A DNA stretch of 64,000 nucleotides. Origin: an uncultured Solirubrobacterales bacterium. Its GTDB lineage: Bacteria; Actinomycetota; Thermoleophilia; Solirubrobacterales; Solirubrobacteraceae. The notes under the pieces were generated by a model. The model saw only the letters and a list, made by a program, of their open reading frames with translations, had not been told where the DNA came from and did no database searches. The translations under genes and the position numbers were made by a program. Below, piece after piece: positions 9,835-28,921 of this stretch. The stretch covers positions 394,421-458,420 of the forward strand of contig OY970158.1 in the NCBI GenBank assembly GCA_963706395.1, read 5' to 3'. How positions within the stretch are numbered: position 1 is the first letter of the stretch; every line of letters begins with the position of its first letter.

Positions 9835-11091
9835 GTGGCCATCGATCTCCAGCAAGTCTCATCCGTAGACGTCGAGCCGGGCGAGCTGCCCAAGACGATG
9901 GCCGCCTGGGTCATCCGCGAGGAGCGCTTCGGTGAACCCAAGGATGCCTTCCAGCTCGAGGAGATCGAGGTCCCAGAGCCCGGGGCGTTCGAGGTGATCG
10001 TGCGCGTGATGGCGGCGGGGGTGAACTACAACAACGTGTGGGCCGCGCTCGGCAAGCCGGTATCGGTGATGAAGTACGGCGACCACCCCGAGTTCGGCCA
10101 TCACATCGGCGGCTCTGACGCCTCCGGCGTCGTCTGGAAGGTCGGCGCGGGGGTGACGCGCTGGAAGCCCGGCGATGAGGTCGTCGTGCATTGCAACCAG
10201 GCCTCCTATGAGGACCCCGAGGTGCACGGCCTCGATCCGATGGCGGCGCCGTCGCAGAAGATCTGGGGCTACGAGACGACCTGGGGATCGTTTGCCCAGT
10301 TCACCAAGATTCAGGCCCAGCAGCTGCTTCCCAAGCCTCAGGCGCTGAGTTGGGAGGAGGCGGCCTCCTACGGCCTGGTGTACTTCACCGCCTACCGCAT
10401 GCTGATCACGCGCTGCAAGCTGCAACCCGGCGCGAACGTGCTGATCTGGGGTGCCGCGGGCGGCCTCGGTGTGTTCGCCACGCAGATCTGCGCCCTCGCC
10501 GGCGCGCACTGCGTCGGCGTCGTGTCCTCGGCCGAGAAGGGCGAGCTCGTCAAGCGCCTGGGCGCGGTCGACTACATCGACCGCGGCGAGTTCGCCGGGA
10601 TGATGCGCAAGGGCGGCGAGAGTCCCGAGGAGGAGAAGGCGCGCTTCAAGGTTTCGCTCGGCTTCGCCAAGAGGGTCAAGGAGATTCTCGGCGACGCGCC
10701 CGACATCGTCTTCGAGCACGTCGGCAAAGCCACGTTCCCGACCTCAGTGTTCACGGCCAAGACGTTCGGCAAAATCGTGATCTGCGCGGGCACGACGGGG
10801 ATCGACCTCGACTTCAACGTCGCCTACCTGTGGATGCGCCAGAAGGAGATCCTCGGCTCGCACTTCGCCAACGCGTATGAGTGCACGAAGGCCAATGAGC
10901 TGATCGAGTCCGGTCAGATCCGTCCCGTGCTGTGGCGCACGCTCGGCTTCGAGGGCGTCGCCGTTGCGCACCAGCTGATGCTCGAAAACAAGCACCTCGG
11001 CAAGATCTCGATCCTCGTCGGCGCCGAGAGCGAGGGCCAGGGCAAGACAGCCGAAGGCCCTGGCGCGATCCACGCAGAGGTCGGCGCGTAA
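9835..11091 (+). CDS. ccr: Crotonyl-CoA carboxylase/reductase
   Basis: MAAGVNYNNVW, GSDASG, HCNQ, WGYET and GSHFAN carry the CO2-binding Asn, aromatic, Glu and His positions. Confidence 0.93.
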   Translation: MAIDLQQVSSVDVEPGELPKTMAAWVIREERFGEPKDAFQLEEIEVPEPGAFEVIVRVMAAGVNYNNVWAALGKPVSVMKYGDHPEFGHHIGGSDASGVVWKVGAGVTRWKPGDEVVVHCNQASYEDPEVHGLDPMAAPSQKIWGYETTWGSFAQFTKIQAQQLLPKPQALSWEEAASYGLVYFTAYRMLITRCKLQPGANVLIWGAAGGLGVFATQICALAGAHCVGVVSSAEKGELVKRLGAVDYIDRGEFAGMMRKGGESPEEEKARFKVSLGFAKRVKEILGDAPDIVFEHVGKATFPTSVFTAKTFGKIVICAGTTGIDLDFNVAYLWMRQKEILGSHFANAYECTKANELIESGQIRPVLWRTLGFEGVAVAHQLMLENKHLGKISILVGAESEGQGKTAEGPGAIHAEVGA

Positions 11092-11933: not shown

Positions 11934-13973
11934 ATGAGCGGCGAACGAGCCCCACGGCTAGCGCAGCCTGACCGGCCCTGGATGATGCGCACATATGCCG
12001 GGCACTCGACGGCAAAGGCGTCCAACGAGCTATACCGGGGCAACCTCGCGAAGGGGCAGACGGGACTGTCGGTCGCTTTCGACCTACCGACCCAGACCGG
12101 ATATGACCCCGACGACGAGCTCTCTCGCGGAGAGGTGGGCAAGGTGGGGGTTCCGGTGGCCCACCGAGGCGACATGGCCACCCTGATGGACGGCATCCCG
12201 CTGTCGGAGATGAACACTTCGATGACGATCAACGCCACCGCCGCGTGGCTGCTGGCGCTGTACATCGTGGCCGCCGAAAACCAGGACCCGCCCACCGATC
12301 AATCACAGCTGCAGGGCACCACCCAGAACGACATCATCAAGGAGTTCTTGGCGCGGGGTACCTACGCCTTCCCGCCCGCGCCCTCGATGCGCCTGATCGC
12401 CGACATGATCGCCTACACGGTCGAGCACGTCCCCAAGTGGAACCCGATCAACATCTGCTCCTATCACCTGCAGGAGGCCGGAGCCACACCGGTGCAGGAG
12501 ATCGCCTACGCGATGAGCAACGCGATCGCCGTGCTCGACGCGGTACGCGAGCGCGTTCAGGCCGCCCACGCCGGCGACGAGACGGCCGCGCAGAAGCTGA
12601 TGGAACAGGTCTTCGGGCGTATCTCCTTCTTCGTAAACGCCGGCGTGCGCTTCGTCGAGGAGCACGCCAAGCTGCGCGCGATGGGCGTGCTGTGGGAGGA
12701 GCTTGGCCGCGAGCGCTACGGAGTGCAGAGCGAGCGCCACCTGCGCTTCCGCTACGGCGTGCAGGTCAACTCGCTGGGCCTCACCGAGGCCCAGCCGGAG
12801 AACAACGTCCAGCGGATCGTGCTCGAGACACTCGCCGTCACCCTGGGACGCGACGCGCGCGCACGGGCAATCCAGCTTCCGGCTTGGAACGAGGCACTGG
12901 GTCTGCCCCGCCCTTGGGACCAGCAGTGGTCGCTGCGCATCCAACAGGTGCTCGCCTATGAGACAGACATCCTGGAGTACCCCGACATTTTCGAGGGTTC
13001 CAAGGTCATGGATGGCCTGGTTTCCGAGCTGCTGGAAGGCGCACGCGCGGAGATGGCCGTGGTCGCCGAGCATGGCGGCGCGGTGCAGGCGGTCCCCTAC
13101 ATGAAGGGCGCGCTGGTGGACTCCCATCGCCAGCGCATCCACCGCATCGAGTCCGGGGAGCAGGTCGTGGTCGGCCAGAACCGCTTTGCCGAGACGGCTG
13201 TCTCGCCGCTGACAGCCGACGCCGAGGGCGGCATCCTCGTCGTCGATCCCGCAGTGGAGAGCGAACAGATCGACGCTGTGCGCCATTGGCGCGCCGAGCG
13301 CGACCAGGCGGCCGTCGACAGCGCCCTGTCAGAGCTCGCCAGGGTCGCCAGCGATGACAGCGGCCAAGGGAATCTGATGATCCCGACAATCGCCGCCGCC
13401 CGGGCAGGCGCCACGACGGGCGAGTGGGCCCACACTCTGCGCGAGGTGTTCGGCTCCTACCGTGCCCCCACGGGCGTGGGGGAGGCGATCGCGATCGGCG
13501 ACTCAACCCTCGACGAGTTGCGCGATGAGGTCGAACGCGTCTCGGCGACGCTCGGGCGCCGGCTGAAGATACTCGTCGGCAAGCCCGGCCTCGACGGCCA
13601 CTCCAACGGCGCCGAGCAGATCGCCGTCGCCGCGCGCGACGCGGGCATGGAGGTCGTATATGAGGGCATCCGCCTGACACCGTCGCAGATTGCCGCCTCA
13701 GCCCTGCAGGAGGGCGTACACGTGGTCGGCCTGTCGATCCTCTCTGGCTCACACCGTGAGCTGATCCCGTCGGTCCTCGCTGCGCTGCGGGAGGCCGGCA
13801 TCGGCGACGTGCCGGTGATCGTCGGCGGCATCATCCCGGCGGCCGACGTCGCGCCGCTGCGTGAGGCGGGCGTCGCCGCCGTGTACACGCCGAAGGACTT
13901 CGACATCACGCGCATCATGCGTGACATCGTCGCGCTCGTGGCCGAGCGCAGCGGAGTCGCGGCGTCCGCGTAG
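11934..13973 (+). CDS. ecm: Ethylmalonyl-CoA mutase (protein MeaA), B12-dependent
   Basis: PWMMRTYAGHS..ASNELYR.NLAKGQTGLSVAFDLPTQTGYD; B12-binding GLDGHSNG in the C-terminal domain; near ccr. Confidence 0.92.
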   Translation: MSGERAPRLAQPDRPWMMRTYAGHSTAKASNELYRGNLAKGQTGLSVAFDLPTQTGYDPDDELSRGEVGKVGVPVAHRGDMATLMDGIPLSEMNTSMTINATAAWLLALYIVAAENQDPPTDQSQLQGTTQNDIIKEFLARGTYAFPPAPSMRLIADMIAYTVEHVPKWNPINICSYHLQEAGATPVQEIAYAMSNAIAVLDAVRERVQAAHAGDETAAQKLMEQVFGRISFFVNAGVRFVEEHAKLRAMGVLWEELGRERYGVQSERHLRFRYGVQVNSLGLTEAQPENNVQRIVLETLAVTLGRDARARAIQLPAWNEALGLPRPWDQQWSLRIQQVLAYETDILEYPDIFEGSKVMDGLVSELLEGARAEMAVVAEHGGAVQAVPYMKGALVDSHRQRIHRIESGEQVVVGQNRFAETAVSPLTADAEGGILVVDPAVESEQIDAVRHWRAERDQAAVDSALSELARVASDDSGQGNLMIPTIAAARAGATTGEWAHTLREVFGSYRAPTGVGEAIAIGDSTLDELRDEVERVSATLGRRLKILVGKPGLDGHSNGAEQIAVAARDAGMEVVYEGIRLTPSQIAASALQEGVHVVGLSILSGSHRELIPSVLAALREAGIGDVPVIVGGIIPAADVAPLREAGVAAVYTPKDFDITRIMRDIVALVAERSGVAASA

Positions 13974-13976
13974 CTC

Positions 13977-14942
13977 GTGAACGAAGGCCTGGATCTCGGC
14001 CGGCGCCTGCGCGAACGTGACCTGAGCGCAGCGCCGGCCACGCTCAACCTGCTGGAGAGCACCACCCCCGGCAACCGCGAGCACGCGGCGGCACTGCTGG
14101 GCGAGCTCTCCCCCGTGGCGCTCGGCGGCGAGGCGCCCGGCCACGTAATCGGCGTCACCGGGCCGCCGGGAGCCGGGAAGTCGACGCTGCTCTCCGCGCT
14201 GCTTGGCGCATGGCGCGGGCAGGGCAAGACGGTGGCGGTTCTGGCGGTCGATCCCTCTTCGCGCCGCTCGGGCGGCTCGCTGCTCGGCGACCGCGCGCGC
14301 ATCGAGTTCGATCCGGCCGACCGCGCCGTCTTCATCCGCTCGACCGCCGCCGGCGAGCGGCTTGGTGGCCTGGCGTGGGGCACCCGCGCGGCGGCCCAGG
14401 CACTGGCCGCGGCGTTTGACATCGTGGTGATCGAGACCGTCGGAGTCGGCCAGGCTGAGACCGATATCGCGGACGTGGCAGACACCGTCGCCGTCGTCGT
14501 CCAGCCCGGCTCAGGCGACGTGTTGCAGTTCTTCAAGGCAGGGATCATGGAGATTCCCGACGTGCTCGTCGTCACCAAGGCCGACCTCGGCCTCCTCGCG
14601 GCGCGTACCATGGGCGAGGTGTCTGCGGCCCTGCGCTCGCTGGGCTCGGGTGCCACCAGCGTGGTGGCGGTGTCCTCGTTGCCTCCGGCGCAGGGAATCG
14701 AGGAGCTCCTCGCCGCGCTGGCTGAGCACCGCACCGGTCTCGAGCTCAAAGACAGGCGCCTGCGCGCGCGCCGGGCGAGCGCGCTGGCCGACTTCACCGC
14801 CGAGTACGGCGAGCGGGGACTGCGCGAGGTGGGAGGCCGCCGGGCGGCCGAGACCCTGCTGGCCGGGCAGGACCCCGGCCTGGACGTACCCACGCTCGTG
14901 GCGGCCCTGGAGCGAAGCATCGGAGCTGACGATGGCGCGTGA
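13977..14942 (+). CDS. meaB: Mutase-associated GTPase MeaB
   Basis: GVTGPPGAGKST, AVDPSS..SGGSLLGDR.R, IETVGVGQ, VTKAD. Confidence 0.92.
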   Translation: MNEGLDLGRRLRERDLSAAPATLNLLESTTPGNREHAAALLGELSPVALGGEAPGHVIGVTGPPGAGKSTLLSALLGAWRGQGKTVAVLAVDPSSRRSGGSLLGDRARIEFDPADRAVFIRSTAAGERLGGLAWGTRAAAQALAAAFDIVVIETVGVGQAETDIADVADTVAVVVQPGSGDVLQFFKAGIMEIPDVLVVTKADLGLLAARTMGEVSAALRSLGSGATSVVAVSSLPPAQGIEELLAALAEHRTGLELKDRRLRARRASALADFTAEYGERGLREVGGRRAAETLLAGQDPGLDVPTLVAALERSIGADDGA

Positions 14943-18823: not shown

Positions 18824-19396
18824 ATGGCCGAGACGAGTGCGCGCAGCTGGCTGCGCTGCTACCGCTGCTGGTCCCAGGAGCTGGAGGTCCAGGTCCATTA
18901 CGAGGGGATCCACAAGATCGACCCCGACACGGGCGAGCGAGCGGAAGTCGTCGACGAGCTGCAGGAGGCCGTCGTCCAGTGCCTGGACTGCATGCACGAC
19001 CAGCCGCACCTCGGCTTCAACAACGGGCGCGTGGAGCCGATCGAGGACCGCTGGGAACGGATGATCGCCGGGACCCCCTGGGTCGCCTCGTGCACCGTGT
19101 CCGTCGACGCCGAGGACGTCGAGAGCTGCTCAGGGCCCGAGGCCGGGGACGCGCTTTCCTACGCCGCCTTCGGCGATCATGGCGTGCGCGAGTTCTTCAC
19201 GCACGTCCGCTTCCACAAGCACGAAGACGACACGCGCATCATCGTCCACCTGCTCGTCGAGCTCTACGCGCGCTCGCTCGAGGAGGCCACCGAGGTGCTC
19301 GAGTCATCCGCGCGCGGGCTGCTGACAATCACCTCGCTGGCGGAGGAGTCACGCCCGCCGGCAGCAGCCGGCGAGACCCACGGTCAGCACGACTAG
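18824..19396 (+). CDS. Hypothetical protein with CxxC...CxxC zinc-ribbon N-terminus
   Basis: CYRC and CLDC; GGAGGG RBS before ATG 18824. Confidence 0.7.
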
Positions 19397-19416
19397 AGAC
19401 CCTCTAGGAGCGCAGT

Positions 19417-21237
19417 TCAACCCAGGCGGGCTTCGAGCGCGTCGAGCTGCGCGCCCAGCTCGGGCGGCAGGCTGTCGAATTTCGCCAGGTGCTCGCGGAA
19501 CTGCGGCAGCTGCGCCTTCCACTCCGCGACATCGACTCGCAGCAGCTCGGCCATGTCCTCTTCGGAGACGTCGAGCCCGCGGGTGTCGATGCCCTCGGGG
19601 CCGACTGGAGGGATCAGTCCGATCGGGGTCTCGCGTCGCGGCGCCATGGCCGGCGCAGCGGGCGAACACCCACGAGAGCACGCGCGAGTTCTCGCCGTAG
19701 CCGGGCCACAGGAAGCGGCCCTCCGGGTCCTTGCGGAACCAGTTGACGTAGAAGATCTTCGGCAGGTTCGCGCCGGCCGTGCGACCGATCTGAAGCCAAT
19801 GGGCGAAGTAGTCGGCCATGTTGTAGCCGCAGAACGGCAGCATCGCGAACGGGTCGAAGCGCAGCTCACCGACAGTCCCGGCGGCCGCTGCTGTCTTCTC
19901 CGAGCTCATCACCGAGCCGAGGAAAACGCCGTGCTCCCAGTCGAGCGCCTCGGTCACCAGCGGCACGACGGTCGAGCGCCGCCCGCCGAACAGCATCGCG
20001 TCGATCGGCACGCCCGCGGGGTCCTCCCACTCGGGCGCGATCGCCGGGTCCTGCGCGGCCGGCGTCGTGAAGCGCGCGTTCGGGTGCGCCGCCGGCGGGG
20101 CGGGCGGATCCGTATCGGGCGTCCAGTCGTTGCCGTGCCAGTCGATCAGGTGCGCGGGCGTCTCCTTGGTCATGCCCTCCCACCAGACGTCGCCGTCGTC
20201 GGTCTTGGCGCAGTTGGTGAAGATCGAGTTGCGCTCGATCGTGCGGATCGCGTTCGGGTTGGTCTGCTCGCCGGTTCCCGGCGCGACGCCGAAGAAGCCG
20301 GACTCGGGATTGATCGCGTACAGCCGCCCGTCCTGCGCCGAACTTCATCCACGCGATGTCGTCGCCGATCGTCTCTACCGTCCAGCCCTCGAGCGTCGGG
20401 ATCAGCATCGCCAGGTTCGTCTTGCCGCAGGCGCTCGGGAATGCGCCGGTGATGTACTTGACCTCGCCCTCGGGCGAGGTCAGCTTGAGGATCAGCATGT
20501 GCTCGGCCATCCAGCCCTCGTCGCGCGCCATCACCGAGGCGATCCGCAGCGCGAAGCACTTCTTGCCGAGCAGCGCGTTGCCGCCGTAGCCGGAGCCGTA
20601 TGACCAGATCTCGCGCGTCTCGGGGAAGTGCACGATGTACTTGTTATCCGCGTTGCACGGCCACGGCACGTCCTCCGCGCCATCCTCGAGCGGCATCCCC
20701 ACGGAGTGCAGGCAGGGCACGAACTCGCCTTCGCTGCCGAGCGCGTCGAGCGCGCCCTGGCCCATGCGCGTCATGATCCGCATGCTCACCGCGACATAGG
20801 TCGAGTCGGTCAGCTGCACGCCGACGTGGCTCTTGTCCGAGCCGAGCGGCCCCATCGAGAACGGGCACCACGTACATCGTGCGGCCCGCGCATGCGAGCC
20901 CGCGAACAGCTCGCTGAGCGTCTCGCGCATCTCAGCCGGGATCGCGCCAGTTGTTCGTCGGTCCCGCTTCGGCCTCGGTGGCCGAGCAGATGAACGTGCG
21001 GTCCTCGACGCGCGCCACGTCGCCGGGGTCCGACAGCGCCAGGTAGGAGTTCGGCCGCTTGGCCTCGGAGAGCTTCTCGAAGGTCCCCGCCTCGACGAGC
21101 TCTGGCAGAGCCGGTCGTACTCCTCGGCGGAGCCGTCGCACCAGATGGACCTGCTCCGGTTCGGTGAGGGCCGCCACCTCCTCGACCCAGGCCAGCAGGC
21201 GCTCGTTCTTTGTGGGGGCGGGGACGGTGGTGTTCAT
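19417..21237 (-). CDS. pckG: GTP-dependent phosphoenolpyruvate carboxykinase, broken by several frameshifts (probably sequencing indels)
   Basis: [73 protein letters not shown] spread over several frames. Confidence 0.9.
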
Positions 21238-21358
21238 GAGATCCAAGCGGCTCCTCGGTATCGCGGTCGTGATCGGCGCGCCGTCGTCCTTGACGCGCTG
21301 CCGGGCCAAGATTGGCTCCGGGAACGGAAAAACGCCCTCTGCGGGCGGTCTGAGAAGC

Positions 21359-21944
21359 CTATCGCACCCCTGAATCGACGTTGCCTCTCGGCGCCGGGCA
21401 TGGCCGAGGCACTGGCGACGCGGCGAGCGGAACTCCTCGGGGTCCGCGGGGTACGAGCACGAGGCGCTTGAACTCGGCCACCAGCACGCCGTCCTGGTTC
21501 AGCACGCGCGTGTGCACCTTCACCGTGCCGCGGTCGGGCTTGGACTGGGACTCGTGCTTCTCCAGCACCTCGGACTCGCAGTAGAGCGTGTCGCCGTGGA
21601 ACACCGGTGCGGGGTGCTTGAGCTCTTCGGTCGCAAGGTTCGCGATCGCCTTGCCGCTGACGTCTGCTGACCGACATGCCGAGCGCGAGCGAGTAGACGA
21701 GCGGGCCGACGACGACGTTGCGCCCCTGCTGGGATTTGTGCGCGTACACGTCGTTCAGGTGCAGCGGGTGGTGGTTCATCGTGATCAGGCAGAAGAGGTG
21801 GTCGTCGGACTCGGTCACCGTCTTTGCGGGCCAGTGCTTGTACACGGCGCCGACCTCGAACTCCTCCAGGTAGCGGCCGTATGGATGGGCGCCGCTCGCC
21901 TCGCGTGCGGCCTGATCGGTCTCGACGGGGTGGGTCTCGCTCAT
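21359..21944 (-). CDS. MaoC-family dehydratase, likely actinobacterial mesaconyl-CoA hydratase; one frameshift near 21665
   Basis: YLEEFEVGAVYKHWP.KTVTE.DDHLFCLITMNHHPLH...DVSGKAIANL...FHGDT resembles the MaoC gene in the Streptomyces ccr/meaA cluster (recalled); pathway context. Confidence 0.8.
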
Positions 21945-22059
21945 GGGTCTCCTTCGGATGGTTGCACGCCGCAACTCTAGACTGTCCGAAGCGCCCAGAC
22001 GATACGGTTTGGAGTCAGACCCATCCCGAACGCCACCCAGGCCACCCAGGAGACCAGAC

Positions 22060-23133
22060 TTGCGCAACCCCCGCGACTTCTTCAAGCCCCTCGCGATCGA
22101 CGCGCCCGAGCCCGCGCGCGAGATCCCGTTCAAGCCGTCCCGGATGATCCACTTCATGGACTTCTCGAACGAGAAAATGGTCGCGAAGGCTCCCGACCTC
22201 GCGCCGCACGGTGGACATCCTGCTCGGCAACCTCGAGGACGCCGTGCCGCTTGAAAAGAAGGAGGCGGCACGAGCCGGTCTGATCAAGGTCGGCAGGGAG
22301 ATGGAGCTCGGCGACACGGCCCTGTGGACGCGCGTCAACGAGCTCGCCTCGCCCTACTTCCTCGACGACATCACCCAGCTCGTGGCCGAGATCGGGCACA
22401 AGCTCGAGGTGGTCATGATCCCGAAGGTCGAGGGTCCGTGGGACATCCACTACGTCGACCGTCTGCTGGCCCAGCTGGAGGCGAAGGCGGGCCTCGAGCG
22501 CCCGATCCTGATCCACTGCGTGCTCGAGACCGCCCAGGGCGTCGCCAACCTCGAGGAGATCGCCTGCGCCTCCCCGCGCATCCAGGGGATGAGCTTCGGC
22601 CCCGCCGACCTCGCCGCCTCGCGGCGCATGAAGACCACGCGCGTCGGCGGCGGGCACCCCGGCTACCGCACGATCGCCGACCCCGATCCGCGAGGACCCG
22701 GACGCGCCGCGGCCGAGCTACCAGCAGGACCCGTGGCACTACTCGATCGCGCGCATGGTCGACGCCTGCACGTCAGTCGGCGCGCTGCCGTTCTACGGCC
22801 CCTACGGCGACATCTCGCGACGCGGAGGGCTGCGAAACGCAGTTCCGGGCCTCGTTCCTGCTCGGCTGCGTCGGCGCCTGGTCGCTGCACCCGGGCCAGA
22901 TCGCGATCGCCAAGCGCGTCTACTCGCCCGACCCCGACGAGGTCGCGTTCGCGAAGAAGGTGATCGAGGCGATCCCCGACGGGCGCGGCGTGCACATGAT
23001 CGACGGCAAGATGCAGGACGACGCGACCTGGAAGCAGTGCAAGGTGATGGTCAACCTCGCGGAAATGCTCGCCAAGAAGGATCCTGAGCTGGCCGAGGCC
23101 TACGGGTTCGTGCCGCAGGCCGCCGCCGTATAG
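22060..23133 (+). CDS. mcl: Malyl-CoA/beta-methylmalyl-CoA/citramalyl-CoA lyase (Chloroflexus-type Mcl), frameshifted
   Basis: TTG 22060 with GGAG RBS; [72 protein letters not shown]. Confidence 0.85.
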
Positions 23134-23146
23134 GCTTCCGCGCCGC

Positions 23147-24381
23147 ATGAGATTCTTCGAGTTCGAGGCGCGCGAGATCGTCAAGCGCGCCGGCATCCCC
23201 GTGACGGACTACGGCTTCACGACCGACCCGGCCGAGGCCAAGCAGATCGCCGAGCGGATCGGCGGCCCGACGGTTATCAAGTCCCAGGTGCTCTCCGGCG
23301 GGCGCATGAAGGCGGGCGGCGTCAAGTTCGCCGAGGCACCCGCCGAGGAGGCCGAGAGTCCTACGCTCGGGACATCCTGCAGCTGGAGATCGGCGGGCAC
23401 ATGCCGCGCGGGGTACTGGTTGACCCGAAGGCGGAGGTCGAGCAGGAGTACTACGCCGGCGTCGTCTGGGACGGCACCGCCAAGAAGCCGCTGATGCTCT
23501 TCAGCGACATGGGCGGCATCGACATCGAGCAGGTCGCCGAGGAGCACCCCGACCACGTCGGCCGCGGCCACTTCTCCACGCTCGAGCCCTTCTCCGACTT
23601 CCAGGCCAAGCAGGTCATCGCCGCCGCCGGCGTCACCGGCAAGGCGCTGCAGCGCGCCACCCCGGTGCTCGCTCGCCTGGCCCAGCTGTTCCTCGACAAC
23701 GACATGACGCTCGCCGAGATCAACCCGCTGGCGCAGCTGAAGGACGGCTCGTTCGTCGCGCTCGACGCGCACATGGAGATGGAGAACGAGGGCATGCCGC
23801 GTCAAAAGAGCCTGATCGAGGCACTGGGTATCGGCGCGGACGAGGGCACCCGCGAGGAGCTACACCCCGACTTCGTTCGAGGTCGCCGTCAAGGCGATCG
23901 ACGCCGCCGATCATCGTGGCGTCATCCAGGGCAAGGACACCGGCTTTCAACGGCAACATCGGCCTGGTGATCGGCGCGGGCGGCGGCTCGCTGACGCTCA
24001 CCGACGCCGTGCGCCAGCAGGGCGGTAAGCCCGCCAACTACTCCGAGATCGGCGGCAACCCGTCGGTCGCCAAGGCCTGCGGCCTGGCCAAGCAGGTTCT
24101 CCAGAAAGACGGCGTCGAGAAGATCGCGGTGATGATGTCGATCGTCTCCAACACGCGCGTGGACATCGTCGCGCGCGGCGTGATCAAGGCCTGCGTGGAG
24201 CTGGGCAAGGACCCCGGCGAGAACGATCGCGATCTTCCGCATCCCAGGCGCCTGGGAGGAGGAGGGCTTCAAGATCCTCGACAAATACGGGATCGAGTAC
24301 TGCGACCGGTCGGTGTCGTTGTGGGAGGCCGCGGGCCGGGCGGTCGCCAAGATTGAACCCCACCCACCCGAGGCGGCCTAG
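23147..24381 (+). CDS. Divergent SucC/MtkA-like ATP-grasp acyl-CoA ligase beta subunit, frameshifted
   Basis: FEFEAREI...[59 protein letters not shown]. Confidence 0.85.
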
Positions 24382-24383
24382 CG

Positions 24384-25312
24384 ATGTCGATCCTCATCGA
24401 CCAGGACACCACCTTCATCATCCAGGGCATCACCGGGCGCGAGGCCGTCAACCTCACGCGCGAGTGCCTGGACTACGGCTCGAAGATCGTCGGCGGCGTC
24501 ACCCCCGGCCGCAAGGGCCGTGAGGTCCACGGCGTGCCGGTGTTCGACACCGTCGAGCAGGCTCGTCGAGCACAACGGCGGCGTCGTGCCCGATGGCTCG
24601 GTCGTCACCGTCCCGCCCGCGGGCACGCGCGACGCCGTCTTCGAGGCGCTGCATGCCGGCATCAAGACGATCGTGATCGTCACCGAGCGTATCCCGCGCC
24701 GCGACGTCGCGATGATGGTCGAGCTGGCCGACGCCAAGGGCGCGCGAATCATCGGTCCCAACTGCCTCGGTGTGATCGTCCCCGGCGTCGCCAAGATGGG
24801 CGGCATCGGCGGCCCTGCGCGCAACGCCGCGGTCGCCTACCAGCCCGGCGCGGTCGGCGTGATGAGCCGCTCCGGCGGCATGACGACGGAGATCTCCTCC
24901 ACACTGACGGCAGCGGGACTCGGCGTCTCCACGGCGGTCTCGATCGGCGGCGACGCGATCATCGGCTCAACCTACGCCGAGCTGATGCCGTACTTCGAGG
25001 CCGACGAGCAGACCCAGGCGATCGTGATCTACACCGAGCCCGGCGGGCGCATGGAGGCCCAGCTGGCGCAGTGGGTCACCGAGCACAACTCGCGCCTGCC
25101 GATCATCGCCTTCATGGCCGGCAAGTTCATGGACGACGAGGAGATGCAGGGCATGTCCTTCGGGCACGCCGGCACGATCGTCGAGGGCAAGGAGGACAGC
25201 GCGACCGAGAAGATCGCCCGCCTCCAGGCGGCTGGCATCCCCGTCGTGCAGCGGATCGACGAGATCCCCGACCTGGTCAAGGCCAAGATCGCCGAGAGGA
25301 GCCCAAGCGTGA
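24384..25312 (+). CDS. SucD/MtkB-like acyl-CoA ligase alpha subunit, frameshift near 24560; 3' end uncertain
   Basis: [42 protein letters not shown], phospho-His motif FGHAG. Confidence 0.88.
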
Positions 25313-25572
25313 GAAAGGACGGGATGTTCATCGCCGTCGAGGTCGATGACCAGGCTGCCGCCGATACCGAGCTGGCCCGCCGGCTGAGCGAGGCCTGCCC
25401 GGTCGACATCTTCGCCCAGAAGCCCGACGGCAGCTTGGAGCTCGTGGAGGAGAACCTCGACGAGTGCGTCCTCTGCCGCCTGTGCCTGGACGCCGCTGAC
25501 TCGGACCCCACCCACCCCGATCAACCGGTGAAGATCATCAAGCTGTACGACAACGGCGCGGTCCTGGCCTGA
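25309..25572 (+). CDS. 4Fe-4S ferredoxin-like protein
   Basis: ACPVDIF and ECVLCRLC; own GAGAGGA RBS 8 nt before GTG 25309. Confidence 0.8.
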
Positions 25573-25613
25573 TTCCCTTTGACCGTGCGGTGGACTATCG
25601 TGTTAACGAGCCC

Positions 25614-25808: not shown

Positions 25809-26183
25809 TCAGTCGTGTTTGCGGGCGTGGCGCGTGTTCTCGCGTTCCTGTTGCTTCTCGACGACGCTCGAGATCAGCCGCAGGAACTGCTCGGGACCGG
25901 AGGCCTTGGCCTGGCCATAGGTGAACGCCTCGATCCAGTCGGGCACCTTGGCCTCATGGGCCATCACGTTGAAGAACTCGCGGCGCATTTCCACCCGCAC
26001 GCGGGCGTCGGTGGGAGGCGTCTTTACCACCTCGATGCCGGGCATCTCCAGGCGGAAGTGCTGCACGTCGCCGCGCCCGCGCAGCTCGACGGCGACCACG
26101 AGCTTCAACGGCTCGAGGGCCGGCACCTCCTCCAGGAACCTGCGCACGGCGAGTTCGATCAGGCTCTTTGCGTCCTCGGCCAT
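25809..26183 (-). CDS. Hypothetical protein, possible SCP2-like fold
   Basis: TGATG overlap with the ACAD; DARVRVEM...AFTYGQAKASG resembles the SCP2 pattern. Confidence 0.6.
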   Translation of the reverse strand: MAEDAKSLIELAVRRFLEEVPALEPLKLVVAVELRGRGDVQHFRLEMPGIEVVKTPPTDARVRVEMRREFFNVMAHEAKVPDWIEAFTYGQAKASGPEQFLRLISSVVEKQQERENTRHARKHD

Positions 26184-27397
26184 CAGATCTTGTGCCGCTC
26201 GAGAAGCTTGCGCCCGATCACCATGCGCTGGATCTCCGAGGTGCCCTCGCCGATCAGCAACAACGGAGCGTCGCGGTAGAGGCGCTCGATCTCATACTCC
26301 TTTGAGTATCCGTAACCGCCGTGGATCCGGAAGGACTCCTCGACGCAGAAGCGCCCGGCCTCGGAGGCGAACAGCTTGGCCATCCCGGCCTCGAGATCGG
26401 AGCGCACGCCGGCGTCCTTCATACGAGCCGCACGCAGCGTGAGCAGCCTGGCGGCATCGACCTGAGTGGCCATGTCGGCGAGCTTGAACTGGATCGCCTG
26501 GTGCTGGGCGATCGGCTTGCCGAAGGTCTTGCGCTCCTGGGAGTAGCGCAGCGCGAGCTCGAGCGCCCGTTGGGCGATCCCGACTCCGCGCGCCGCCACG
26601 TTCACGCGGCCGACCTCCAGGGCGTCCATCATCTGCGAGAAGCCCTTGTTCAGGCCGTCCTGCTCGCCGCCGAGTATGTTCTCCGCCGGGCAGTTGTAGC
26701 CGTCAAAAACGAGCTCGGTGGACTCCACACCCTTGTAGCCCATCTTTTTGATCTTCGGGGGCACGTTCAAGCCCGCGTACTCCCCCGTGTTCTCAGAGAC
26801 GCCCGCCTGCTTCTCGGCGATAAAGCAGGTCATACCGCGGTGGCGAGGATCGGCCTCGGGGTCTGTCTTGACCAGTACGAACACCAGCGTGGACATAAGC
26901 CCGTTGGTGACCCACATCTTCTGCCCGTTGATCTCATAGGCGCCGTCGCTCGTCTTCTTGGCGGAGGTCTTGATTGCCTGCACATCCGAGCCGAGCTCGG
27001 GCTCTGAAAGGGAGAACGCCGCCCTGATCTCACCGGTGGCCATGCGCGGCAGATACTTCTGCTTCTGCTCGTCGGTGCCGAACTTCATCAGCAGATAGGA
27101 GCCGATGAAGTGCGTGTTGATCACACCGGATATCGAGATCCAGCCGCGCGAGAGCTCCTCCACAATCATCGCGTAGGTCGTCAGGTCCAGGCCCATTCCC
27201 CCGTACTCCTCGGGGATGGTCACCCCGAACAGCCCGAGCTCCTTCATCTGCTCGACGATCGGCTCGGGGAAGGCGTCCTCGTGGTCGTAGTGCTCGGCGT
27301 TCGGCAGGATCTGCTCGTCGGCGAACTGGTGGACCATCTCGGTGATCGCTTTCTGCTCGTCGGAGAACTCGTGGGGGTTTTGGGTGGTCACGGCCAA
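26183..27397 (-). CDS. Acyl-CoA dehydrogenase, likely methylsuccinyl-CoA dehydrogenase (actinobacterial type)
   Basis: IPEEYGGMG, FSLSEPELGSD, NGQKMWVTNG, KMGYKG, RIHGGYGYSKEYEIERLYRDA; resembles the ACAD of the Streptomyces ccr cluster (recalled); context. Confidence 0.85.
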   Translation of the reverse strand: MAVTTQNPHEFSDEQKAITEMVHQFADEQILPNAEHYDHEDAFPEPIVEQMKELGLFGVTIPEEYGGMGLDLTTYAMIVEELSRGWISISGVINTHFIGSYLLMKFGTDEQKQKYLPRMATGEIRAAFSLSEPELGSDVQAIKTSAKKTSDGAYEINGQKMWVTNGLMSTLVFVLVKTDPEADPRHRGMTCFIAEKQAGVSENTGEYAGLNVPPKIKKMGYKGVESTELVFDGYNCPAENILGGEQDGLNKGFSQMMDALEVGRVNVAARGVGIAQRALELALRYSQERKTFGKPIAQHQAIQFKLADMATQVDAARLLTLRAARMKDAGVRSDLEAGMAKLFASEAGRFCVEESFRIHGGYGYSKEYEIERLYRDAPLLLIGEGTSEIQRMVIGRKLLERHKI

Positions 27398-27445: not shown

Positions 27446-28921
27446 GTGAACTTCGCCAGGGACGTCCTCGACCAGCTGCCGCCTTCGGGCCTGGCGCTCG
27501 TAGAGCTGACGCGCGACGGCGCGCGCCGCGAGTGGACGTTCGCCGAGGTCAGCGAGCGCAGCGCGTGCCTGGCTGGCACTCTGCGGGCCCGCGGAATCGG
27601 GCGCGGCGACGTGGTGCTGACGCTGATCGGCAACCGGCCCGAGTGGGTGTTCACGATGCTGGCCTGCTTTCGGATCGGCGCGGTCGTGCTGCCGTGCACC
27701 GAGCAGTTGCGCGCGAAGGACCTGGCCTTGCGCATCGAGGCAGTGCGCCCATCGCTGATCCTCGCCGATGAGCGCAACCGGGCCGAGTTGGAGATAGCCC
27801 GGCCGGAATGCCCGGTGGCACTCCTGCCTGAGGAGACGCTGTTCGCGTCCGAGCCGGCGCCTGCCGCAGAGCTCGCGGCGGAGGAGCCCTGCCTGATCAC
27901 CTTCACCAGCGGCACGGCGGGCGAGCCGAAGGCGGTGGTGCATGGCCAGCGCTACCTCACCGGGCAGCGTTTGCAGGCCTCACACTGGCTCGACGCGCGT
28001 GCGGGTGAGCTCGTGTGGTGTACCGCCGCGAGCGGCTGGTCGAAGTCCGCCCGCAACATCTTCATCGCGCCGTGGCTGTCGGGCGCTGCCGCGCTGCTGC
28101 ACGATGCACGTTTTGACCCGGATGAGCGGCTGGAGCTGCTCGCGCGCGAGCGCGTGAACGTGCTGTGCATGGCCCCAACCGAGTACCGGGTGATCGCCAA
28201 GCGCTCGAACCTGCGAGCGCTTCCGGCACTGCGCACGATGGTGGCCGCGGGCGAGGCGCTCAATCCCGAGGTCCTGCGCGCTTGGCGTGCAGTCACCGGA
28301 CTGGAGATCCGCGACGGCTACGGCCAGACTGAGACAGGCCAGCTGACCGGCGCGCCGCCCGGCGCGCAGGCAAGGCCCGGCTCGATGGGACCCGCGCTGC
28401 CGGGCGTGGGCCTGCTGATCAAATACGGCGAGCTGACGGCGAACCCGGTGACCATTCCGACCTTCTTCCTCGGCTACCTAGGCGAGCACGTGCGCCGTGA
28501 CGAGGACGGCACATGGAGCGTGGAGGACCGCCGCGCCGGACCGCCGTGGCGCACCGGAGACCTGGTGGCGCAGGATGAGGACGGCTGGTATCACTTCGAG
28601 GGGCGTAACGACGATCTGATCATCTCCGCCGGCTACCGGATCGGGCCGTTCGAGGTCGAGTCCGCGCTCGTCGCTCACCCCGCGGTGGCCGAGGCCGCCG
28701 CCGTGGCGGCCCCGGATGAGGAGCGCGGCGAGGTCGTGCGCGCGGTGGTCGTGCTGCGCGACGGCCACGCCCCTTCCACGGCGCTGGCCAAGGAGCTGCA
28801 GGAGCACGTCAAGCTTCAGACCGCGCCCTACAAGTACCCGCGCATCATCGACTTCGCCTCCGAGCTCCCGAAGACCGCAAGCGGGAAGATCAGACGAGCT
28901 GCTCTGCGGTCTGAGCGCTAA
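27446..28921 (+). CDS. AMP-forming acyl-CoA synthetase (short/medium chain)
   Basis: FTSGTAGEPK, DGYGQTET, RTGD, GRNDDLI.SAGYRIGPFEVE, YKYPR, PKTASGKI. Confidence 0.9.
   Translation: MNFARDVLDQLPPSGLALVELTRDGARREWTFAEVSERSACLAGTLRARGIGRGDVVLTLIGNRPEWVFTMLACFRIGAVVLPCTEQLRAKDLALRIEAVRPSLILADERNRAELEIARPECPVALLPEETLFASEPAPAAELAAEEPCLITFTSGTAGEPKAVVHGQRYLTGQRLQASHWLDARAGELVWCTAASGWSKSARNIFIAPWLSGAAALLHDARFDPDERLELLARERVNVLCMAPTEYRVIAKRSNLRALPALRTMVAAGEALNPEVLRAWRAVTGLEIRDGYGQTETGQLTGAPPGAQARPGSMGPALPGVGLLIKYGELTANPVTIPTFFLGYLGEHVRRDEDGTWSVEDRRAGPPWRTGDLVAQDEDGWYHFEGRNDDLIISAGYRIGPFEVESALVAHPAVAEAAAVAAPDEERGEVVRAVVVLRDGHAPSTALAKELQEHVKLQTAPYKYPRIIDFASELPKTASGKIRRAALRSER

Follow-up and report, generated by a model that had tools for sequence, protein, structure and literature searches.

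A distinct clade of the succinyl-CoA/citryl-CoA synthetase superfamily encoded beside a Chloroflexus-type malyl-CoA lyase in Solirubrobacterales, with a predicted role in malate-CoA conversion

Introduction

In the genome of an uncultured Solirubrobacterales bacterium a malyl-CoA lyase gene (mcl) is followed by the genes of a two-subunit acyl-CoA ligase and of a small ferredoxin-like protein, and the locus raises the question of which acid this ligase acts on and in which direction. The four genes are located in a stretch of 64,000 nucleotides, here called the window (C1:394421–458420), of a genome assembled as one contig of 2.63 Mb, with a completeness of 93% and a G+C content of 65–70%; its nearest relatives place it in the Solirubrobacterales. 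From sequence and gene context we propose, with a probability of roughly 0.55 for the substrate class and the partner, that the ligase is an ADP-forming enzyme which reversibly joins (S)-malate to CoA, perhaps with citramalate or beta-methylmalate as further substrates, and that it acts together with the trifunctional Mcl. The most likely direction in this order, held with less confidence than the substrate class, would be from malyl-CoA to malate and ATP, which would complete the ethylmalonyl-CoA pathway. A preliminary description of the window, made from the letters alone, had suggested an undescribed malate/citramalate-type ligase; the separate clade of the protein and its lyase context support that interpretation, the substrate itself being a prediction.

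Ligase subunits and phylogeny

By their domains, the beta and alpha subunits are assigned to the NDP-forming acyl-CoA synthetase superfamily, of the type of succinyl-CoA synthetase (SCS), citryl-CoA synthetase (CCS) and ATP-citrate lyase. Residues 3–195 of the beta subunit match the ATP-grasp_2 domain (PF08442, E 1.1e-47), and the C-terminal half shows a weak match to Citrate_bind and none to Ligase_CoA in Pfam. The alpha subunit contains the Pfam domains CoA_binding (PF02629), Succ_CoA_lig (PF13607) and Ligase_CoA (PF00549), scores 275 bits against the NCBIfam sucD model with a cut-off of 336, and has kept the catalytic histidine loop GHAG; the phospho-histidine motif FGHAG pointed out in the preliminary description is found at 25159–25173. 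The Mcl, beta and alpha proteins of the window were stitched across frame breaks, which are described below, and P0001, an intact homologue of the beta subunit, was used for scoring.

P0001 falls below the cut-offs of the two SucC models (NF001913 and TIGR01016, 238 against 370 and 227 against 375.55 bits respectively) and below that of MtkA (NF010647, 174.8 against 604 bits). Among PDB entries it matches the SCS beta subunit with 176 bits (Thermus, 3ufx_B), the CCS large subunit with 139 bits (6hxq_B) and AclB with 76 bits, and is roughly equally distant from all of them. The possibility had been raised that these are the only sucCD genes of the genome; an intact canonical sucCD is located at C1:1420407–1422370, about 1 Mb from the operon, and the operon ligase is therefore an extra enzyme.

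The loops that line the acid site, compared by alignment, differ from those of SCS, as had been noticed before. They lie at 23961–24011, 24030–24062 and 24132–24164 and read IGAGGGSLT at one end of the region and SIVSNTRVD at the other, against NGAGL, PANFLD.GGG and GGITRCD in SCS, and the standard forms are carried by the SucC of the same genome (GILGNGAGLVMSTLD, PANFLDAGGG and GGITRCD). The unusual loops are present in 74 uninterrupted homologues of other genomes, in which 196 of the 412 alignment columns are invariant, and homologues with 94–96% identity to the window protein retain every loop. Since they are identical in intact homologues, the loops are genuine and no artefact of the frameshifts, and the earlier doubt whether they would survive frame correction is thereby removed.

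Among 1.8 billion cluster representatives searched, the relatives form a graded series. A careful maximum likelihood tree (IQ-TREE) of 70 full-length beta sequences resolves four groups, each on one side of a branch. SCS forms a group of 29 rows including the genome's own SucC (support 100/99), a CCS-like group has support of 100/100 with a member (P0208) that scores 240 bits to 6hxq_B, a second unnamed clade has support of 100/98, and the beta subunit of the window belongs to a clade of 22 rows with support of 100/100, here called clade III. The groups were named through the PDB matches of representatives, the NCBIfam scan of the alignment giving pooled counts only; the tree contains no reference MtkA or AclB, and membership of the MtkA family was judged solely by the profile cut-off. 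Clade III lies within a superclade that also contains the CCS-like proteins. The CCS-like group, the second unnamed clade and clade III have in common the motifs GGGG.S and PANY.E..GNP and an insertion of one residue ahead of TR.D; an insertion reading HRGV, absent in SCS, is also common to the three. The citrate-lyase-like loop features reported earlier are thus found in the alignment. The position that reads RRGG in the CCS-like group is R(I/L)PG in clade III (RIPG here) and RL(D/E)G in SCS.

By tree and profile scores, the ligase is classed as a distinct, uncharacterised clade of the succinyl-CoA/citryl-CoA synthetase superfamily, in agreement with the earlier view that it is neither a standard SucCD nor a standard MtkAB. 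The PDB searches returned no solved structure for clade III and no close relative of it, and homologues are annotated as 'succinyl-CoA synthetase', 'citryl-CoA synthetase', 'acetate-CoA ligase family' or 'ATP-grasp protein'. No description of the clade was found in the literature searched, which covered malyl-CoA lyase, malate thiokinase, citryl-CoA synthetase, the ethylmalonyl-CoA pathway of Solirubrobacter and CoA synthetases of C4/C5 acids.

The malyl-CoA lyase

The stitched Mcl matches the malyl-CoA lyase of Chloroflexus aurantiacus (PDB 4l7z and 4l80) from end to end, about 70% of 343 residues being identical (E 1.7e-151). The alignment spans residues 7–347 of 4l7z_A and takes in both the conserved N-terminus and the lid at the C-terminus (QDDATWKQ); the match to the Roseiflexus enzyme is as good, that to the Rhodobacter type much poorer. 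In Pfam the protein is an HpcH_HpaI domain protein, and a profile search of the genome found mcl as its only gene of this CitE family. By homology, Mcl is a predicted (S)-malyl-CoA/beta-methylmalyl-CoA/(S)-citramalyl-CoA lyase of the Chloroflexus type, a type that takes citramalyl-CoA as a substrate (PMC3832036).

Distribution of the ligase

The distribution was surveyed in 201 genomes of the class. In the 36 genomes of its own order the ligase is present in 33 (68–82% identity), Chloroflexus-type Mcl in 34, Ccr in 35 and malate synthase in seven; in the 165 genomes of other orders the corresponding numbers are two (a relative with 48% identity), none, three and 65. All 33 ligase genomes of the order have both Mcl and Ccr. 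In 29 of the 33, ligase and Mcl are encoded on the same contig; the median distance between them is 4.9 kb, and in 26 genomes they are no more than 8 kb apart. The median distance from ligase to Ccr is 23 kb. One large subgroup has the ligase divergent beside the phosphoenolpyruvate carboxykinase (PEPCK) gene, with mcl and a hydratase gene several kb off. Close relatives of the ligase occur in more than 580 species-level genomes.

A single sampled genome (G113) has Mcl and Ccr without the ligase, and this genome has malate synthase. Directly after its mcl, at the site of the beta, alpha and ferredoxin-like genes, there is a gene similar to the Rhodobacter-type malyl-CoA lyase (308 aa, 233 bits to 5ugr_A; locus L096, G113:C17, 6953–9333), and the ligase looks to have been displaced by a different enzyme with malyl-CoA or glyoxylate as substrate. 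For Mcl2 a Glu is reported in place of the lyase-type Asp (PMC3832036); by eye, this Asp-to-Glu signature was not seen in the displacing gene.

The ferredoxin-like protein

The fourth gene of the operon encodes a protein of about 80–87 aa. Across 50 aligned sequences, some of them from distant members of the clade, four cysteines (C30, C53, C56 and C59; CP ... CxxCxxC) and the residues FI, DEC and KLY are invariant. The cysteine set corresponds to the ligands by which a 2x[4Fe-4S] ferredoxin binds one of its two clusters; one version from Chloroflexi has eight cysteines. The AlphaFold (AF2) model is confident, with a pLDDT of 86, and Foldseek returned only weak matches to ferredoxin folds, the best with E 0.019 (the Fe-S subunit of PAPS-reductase, the delta subunit of PFOR, ABCE1 and PsaC). 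The protein has no Pfam match at 0.01, and its database names are hypothetical protein or a generic ferredoxin COG.

Gene neighbourhoods were compared in 80 related Solirubrobacterales loci and in ten clade-III loci, namely the window, L007, L008 and seven distant members. The ferredoxin-like gene stands beside the alpha or the lyase gene in nearly all of the 80. Nine of the ten clade-III loci have it; the exception, where it was not seen, is the partial P0321 place, one of the seven distant members. In L092 an unannotated ferredoxin-like open reading frame at 10625–10825, homologous to the small gene of the window, follows an HpcH lyase gene. Judged by this conservation, the gene is a predicted third component of the clade-III ligase, and one to which the preliminary description gave too little weight. 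The translational coupling to alpha across phyla suggests that the product is part of the enzyme and does not act as a freely diffusing electron carrier; this Fe-S protein probably serves the ligase as a third subunit with a structural or redox-sensing role. In the literature searched, no report was found of an SCS-family ligase with a ferredoxin subunit.

Operon structure and frame breaks

The tight, co-oriented arrangement of mcl, beta, alpha and the ferredoxin-like gene given in the preliminary description is borne out, with 13 bp between mcl and beta and 2 bp between beta and alpha; the overlap of alpha with the ferredoxin-like gene (GTGA or ATGA) is seen in relatives, where alpha ends ...AERSGS* at a GTGA overlap. 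Table 1 gives the positions of these and the neighbouring genes.

Table 1. Genes of the operon and its surroundings in the window
Gene or product	Position	Strand	Remarks
Ccr	9892..11091	+	intact; TIGR01751, 484 bits, cut-off 378.55
Ethylmalonyl-CoA-mutase-like fused B12 mutase	11955..13973	+	intact; acid_CoA_mut_N/C above cut-off
MeaB-like GTPase	13977..14942	+	intact; 199 bits, below cut-off
GTP-dependent PEPCK	19420..21309	-	tblastn with the PEPCK of L031, four segments; PEPCK_N and PEPCK_GTP on the L007 orthologue
Half-size MaoC hydratase, candidate mesaconyl-CoA hydratase (Mch)	21400..21944	-	tblastn segments 21944–21666 and 21667–21446; one frameshift
mcl	22060..23133	+	TTG start at 22060 behind AGGAG; TAG at 23131–23133; three +1 insertions
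Ligase beta (ATP-grasp) subunit	23147..24381	+	ATG at 23147; TAG at 24379–24381; frame broken four times
Ligase alpha (CoA-binding, phospho-histidine) subunit	24384..25312	+	ATG at 24384; internal +1 insertion at 24562; stop hidden by insertion at 25304
Ferredoxin-like protein	25309..25572	+	GTG start at 25309
Conserved protein, 124 aa	25809..26183	-	no Pfam or NCBIfam match
Acyl-CoA dehydrogenase, 402 aa, candidate methylsuccinyl-CoA dehydrogenase	26183..27391	-	Pfam Acyl-CoA_dh N, M and C domains
AMP-forming acyl-CoA synthetase	27500..28921	+	MbcS, 388 bits, cut-off 850; acetate-CoA ligase, 303 bits

None of the window copies of mcl, beta and alpha is an open frame. Protein-guided mapping by tblastn divides mcl into four, beta into five, alpha into two, the MaoC gene into two and the PEPCK gene into four frame segments. 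When the DNA is aligned with that of five relatives, the breaks between 22.0 and 25.6 kb are all seen to be insertions, nine of 1 nt and one of 5 nt, and none is located in a long homopolymer. Among them are those in mcl at 22209, 22691 and 22817 and in beta at 23351 (5 nt), 23858, 23945 and 24222, and the insertion at 25304 abolishes the TGA stop of alpha, which becomes fused in frame to the ferredoxin-like gene. The frame-breaking changes cluster at window positions 19300–25600 (413.7–420.0 kb of the genome), other hot bins being situated at about 860 kb and about 650 kb. The flanking ccr, mutase, meaB, acyl-CoA dehydrogenase and acyl-CoA synthetase genes are intact.

The frameshifts are in our judgement very probably an assembly error rather than decay, because the stitched frames are free of in-frame stops, the stitched beta is 94% identical to the intact P0001, and its private changes are few (three at columns invariant in 74 relatives, within the range of intact relatives). 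Whether the operon is a dead relic in this genome, with the ten insertions as real mutations and the enzyme not made, is a question separate from that of function, and such a state is quite unlikely. It would account for the 10-kb bin of the operon being the genome maximum of reading-frame changes (31 against a median of 9) and for events that are all insertions outside homopolymers, unlike the usual error pattern of long reads. Against it, PEPCK and the only Mcl and Mch candidates of the genome would have been lost together while ccr, the ecm-like gene and meaB stayed intact, and many of the related records are long-read metagenome bins.

Neighbouring genes and the ethylmalonyl-CoA pathway

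The ccr, ecm-like and meaB genes are located 8–12 kb upstream of the operon. The B12 mutase scores 530 against the methylmalonyl-CoA mutase equivalog with a cut-off of 876, and can be assigned neither to Ecm nor to Mcm; the acyl-CoA dehydrogenase is a generic one. In most related loci the PEPCK gene is divergent and adjoins the ligase or mcl, the genes for the 124-aa protein and the acyl-CoA dehydrogenase are kept downstream of the ligase, and the AMP-forming acyl-CoA synthetase is also kept in related loci. The homologue of the MaoC hydratase has the Pfam domains MaoC and MC_hydratase; its best PDB match is the beta-methylmalyl-CoA dehydratase 8hgn_A with 98 bits and its best NCBIfam match RipB/Ich with 129 bits, below the cut-off. 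It is the only MC_hydratase-like match in the genome. The window hydratase consists of a single hot-dog domain of about 175 aa, and the characterised mesaconyl-CoA hydratases that it matches are fused double domains of about 350 aa (PDB 8hgn and 4e3e).

In this 93%-complete single-contig genome there is no match to malate synthase (PF01274) or to isocitrate lyase (PF00463), no Mcl2-type thioesterase, and no second gene of the CitE family was found. There is one gene for a family-III CoA transferase, situated 245 kb from the operon, and a route for malyl-CoA through a CoA transferase of the Smt type is unlikely with the sole gene at that distance. Because malate synthase and isocitrate lyase are missing and the ccr-type gene set is present, the ethylmalonyl-CoA route is apparently the one by which the organism takes up C2 units into its metabolism; with these two enzymes absent, one CitE-family gene and a distant transferase, no other obvious enzyme is left for the conversion of malyl-CoA to malate. 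The earlier suggestion that the ligase takes the place of the thioesterase in the ethylmalonyl-CoA pathway has been strengthened: ccr, the ecm-like gene and meaB are nearby and malate synthase, isocitrate lyase and a second CitE-family gene were not found, and the substrate and direction of the ligase stay predictions.

Distant members of the clade

The gene neighbourhoods of the distant clade-III members vary. The 49%-identical L098 has genes for an aspartate aminotransferase, class I fumarase alpha and beta, ligase beta and alpha, the ferredoxin-like protein and a CitE-type lyase, and L091 from Chloroflexi, the closest outgroup in the tree, has fumarase alpha and beta, the ligase, the ferredoxin-like protein and an acyl-CoA dehydrogenase. 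PrpD, the ligase, (HD), a CitE-type lyase, the ferredoxin-like protein, GntR and SDH are encoded in L092 and L095. The theme of the clade, a hydratase making a 2-hydroxy-dicarboxylate combined with the ligase and a hydroxyacyl-CoA lyase, points to a 2-hydroxy-dicarboxylate as the substrate. For these more distant members, the operons of fumarase, ligase and CitE-type lyase support the earlier idea of a two-component hydroxy-acid lyase that depends on ATP.

In L090 (7001–10117) the ligase and ferredoxin-like genes are followed by a 264-aa citrate-synthase-like gene of the size of a citryl-CoA lyase, near genes of the aconitase family, and this locus may encode a second, non-CcsAB two-step cleavage of citrate or a homologue. 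L094 (5749–11311), on a planctomycete-like contig, has the ligase and the ferredoxin-like gene between E2 and the E1-beta and E1-alpha genes of a 2-oxoacid dehydrogenase, which suggests a module leading from oxoacid through acyl-CoA to acid and ATP that is distinct from OGDH/SCS; an SCS-like enzyme beside an oxoacid dehydrogenase would be expected to run in the ATP-forming direction.

Proposed function and alternatives

By the chemistry of the family, ATP would phosphorylate the histidine of the alpha subunit, the phosphoryl group would activate the carboxylate of a C4 or C5 2-hydroxy-dicarboxylate, and CoA would displace it, the reaction being freely reversible as in SCS. From the context the net reaction should be malyl-CoA + ADP + Pi -> malate + CoA + ATP, a step that would stand in for a malyl-CoA thioesterase or malate synthase and so complete the ethylmalonyl-CoA pathway; the malate formed would feed PEPCK via oxaloacetate. 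A malate-type substrate is preferred because mcl is located 13 bp upstream, because ligase, Ccr and Mcl co-occur and no other enzyme for malyl-CoA to malate is apparent, because the PEPCK gene divergently adjoins the ligase even where mcl is several kb off, and because the genome without the ligase, G113, has malate synthase. Canonical SCS forms malyl-CoA and itaconyl-CoA at low rates according to Nolte et al. 2014, as that work is cited in PMC12290011, and it is thus plausible on chemical grounds that a clade should be devoted to acids of this kind. It is also possible, as a tentative extension, that the order, a dominant one among soil actinobacteria, uses an 'ATP-conserving malate synthase' composed of the lyase and a three-subunit ligase, in which the Fe-S subunit would couple or gate substrate-level phosphorylation to redox state.

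Several observations weigh against the proposed malate-CoA ligase. Both the substrate and the direction are read solely from the gene context, and the operon copy of the window is frameshifted. Ligase, Mcl and Ccr are found together within a single order only, so that shared descent inflates the correlation; malate synthase is also present in six ligase-bearing genomes, and the ligase is not simply its substitute; and about half of the genomes of the order have a second CitE-family gene, a possible thioesterase. The displacement in G113 is one case, and the gene there keeps the lyase-type Asp. The hydratase scores slightly higher against RipB/Ich (129 bits) than against Mch halves (98 bits), which fits the catabolism of C5 acids. 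In L008, from Thermoleophilaceae, a thioesterase gene of the 4HBT family (12488–12799) directly follows the ferredoxin-like gene, and its product could be an alternative or back-up for the release of the acid from its CoA ester.

A catabolic ligase for C5 dicarboxylates (itaconate, mesaconate, citramalate or methylsuccinate) is the likeliest of the alternatives, though we regard it as unlikely. The ligase would then form the CoA ester, the adjacent MaoC hydratase would yield (S)-citramalyl-CoA, Mcl would cleave this to acetyl-CoA and pyruvate, and the nearby acyl-CoA dehydrogenase would handle methylsuccinyl-CoA. The best NCBIfam score of the hydratase, to the itaconyl-CoA hydratase RipB/Ich, agrees with such a route, as do the acceptance of citramalyl-CoA by the Chloroflexus-type lyase, the adjoining ligase, hydratase, lyase and acyl-CoA dehydrogenase genes of most loci, and the relatives that stand beside genes of the class I fumarase/mesaconase type; furthermore, SCS activates itaconate where the CoA transferase is missing, and methylsuccinyl-CoA dehydrogenases occur in itaconate clusters (both PMC12290011). 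However, the scores to RipB/Ich and RipC are all far below the cut-offs, the ethylmalonyl-CoA pathway, for which Ccr and an Ecm-like mutase are present, depends on the only Mch and Mcl candidates that the genome has, and the large subgroup with mcl and hydratase several kb off retains the divergent PEPCK beside the ligase.

A second succinyl-CoA synthetase, for example for the succinyl-CoA that propionyl-CoA yields where the ethylmalonyl-CoA pathway ends, is improbable. The best NCBIfam and PDB matches of the beta subunit are to SCS beta (SucC 238 bits, Thermus 3ufx_B 176 bits) and the catalytic histidine loop is conserved, but an intact canonical sucCD is present, all three acid-site loops differ and are conserved in a form of their own, the clade is split from SCS at 100/99, and its members are found beside hydroxyacyl-CoA lyases and not beside genes of the tricarboxylic acid (TCA) cycle. 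The automatic annotation of some homologues by JGI/NCBI as 'citryl-CoA synthetase large subunit' finds an echo in the weak Citrate_bind match, in GGGG.S and PANY.E..GNP in common with the CCS-like proteins, and in the 264-aa citrate-synthase-like gene after one distant clade member. A citryl-CoA synthetase is nevertheless highly improbable, as clade III stands apart from the CCS-like group, which alone reaches 240 bits to 6hxq_B (139 for P0001), no citrate-synthase-type lyase adjoins the ligase in the Solirubrobacterales loci, and the RRGG motif reads RIPG here. Both the plain SCS paralogue and the citryl-CoA synthetase were rejected on clade, motifs and partners.

Comparison with known systems

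Like SucCD, the ligase is built from a beta subunit of the ATP-grasp type and an alpha subunit that binds CoA and carries the phospho-histidine loop GHAG, and SucCD gives its best NCBIfam and PDB matches. It is a paralogue of the canonical sucCD of the same genome, and differs in scores below the equivalog cut-offs, in the acid-site loops, the HRGV insertion and the separate clade, and in the small Fe-S gene. With MtkAB and malyl-CoA lyase of serine-cycle methylotrophs it would share the reaction malate + ATP + CoA <-> malyl-CoA + ADP + Pi as well as the linkage to a lyase. It is, however, not an orthologue of MtkAB (175 against 604 bits), its lyase is of the Chloroflexus type, and it is encoded in a context of ethylmalonyl-CoA pathway and PEPCK genes, where it would probably run in the reverse, ATP-forming direction.

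The CcsAB enzyme with citryl-CoA lyase of Hydrogenobacter (PDB 6hxq) and ATP-citrate lyase share with the ligase the superclade, the loops, the insertion before TR.D and the principle of a ligase feeding a separate acyl-CoA lyase; in contrast, the ligase belongs to a separate 100/100 clade without RRGG, has a CitE/HpcH-type lyase as partner and an Fe-S protein as small subunit. In the 'apparent malate synthase' of Rhodobacter sphaeroides (Mcl1 and Mcl2), Mcl condenses acetyl-CoA and glyoxylate, and Mcl2 then removes CoA from malyl-CoA (PMC3832036). The ligase is proposed to remove CoA from malyl-CoA after the same Mcl condensation; it belongs to an unrelated family, and would save the energy of the thioester as ATP instead of losing it by hydrolysis.

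Significance

An SCS-family enzyme with a dedicated predicted Fe-S subunit is new relative to the literature searched. Present annotations of the ligase can yield false calls of the reductive TCA or TCA cycle in metagenome surveys. If the proposed function is true, a natural reversible malyl-CoA synthetase would be available for synthetic glyoxylate, serine-cycle and CO2-fixation designs that now use MtkAB, and a third functional clade would stand between succinyl-CoA and citryl-CoA synthetases, with a bearing on the evolution of enzymes of the ATP-citrate lyase type. For the Solirubrobacterales, which are abundant in soils, it would mean that the last step of the ethylmalonyl-CoA pathway can conserve energy, and the ATP balance of the assimilation of acetate and other C2 units would change accordingly.

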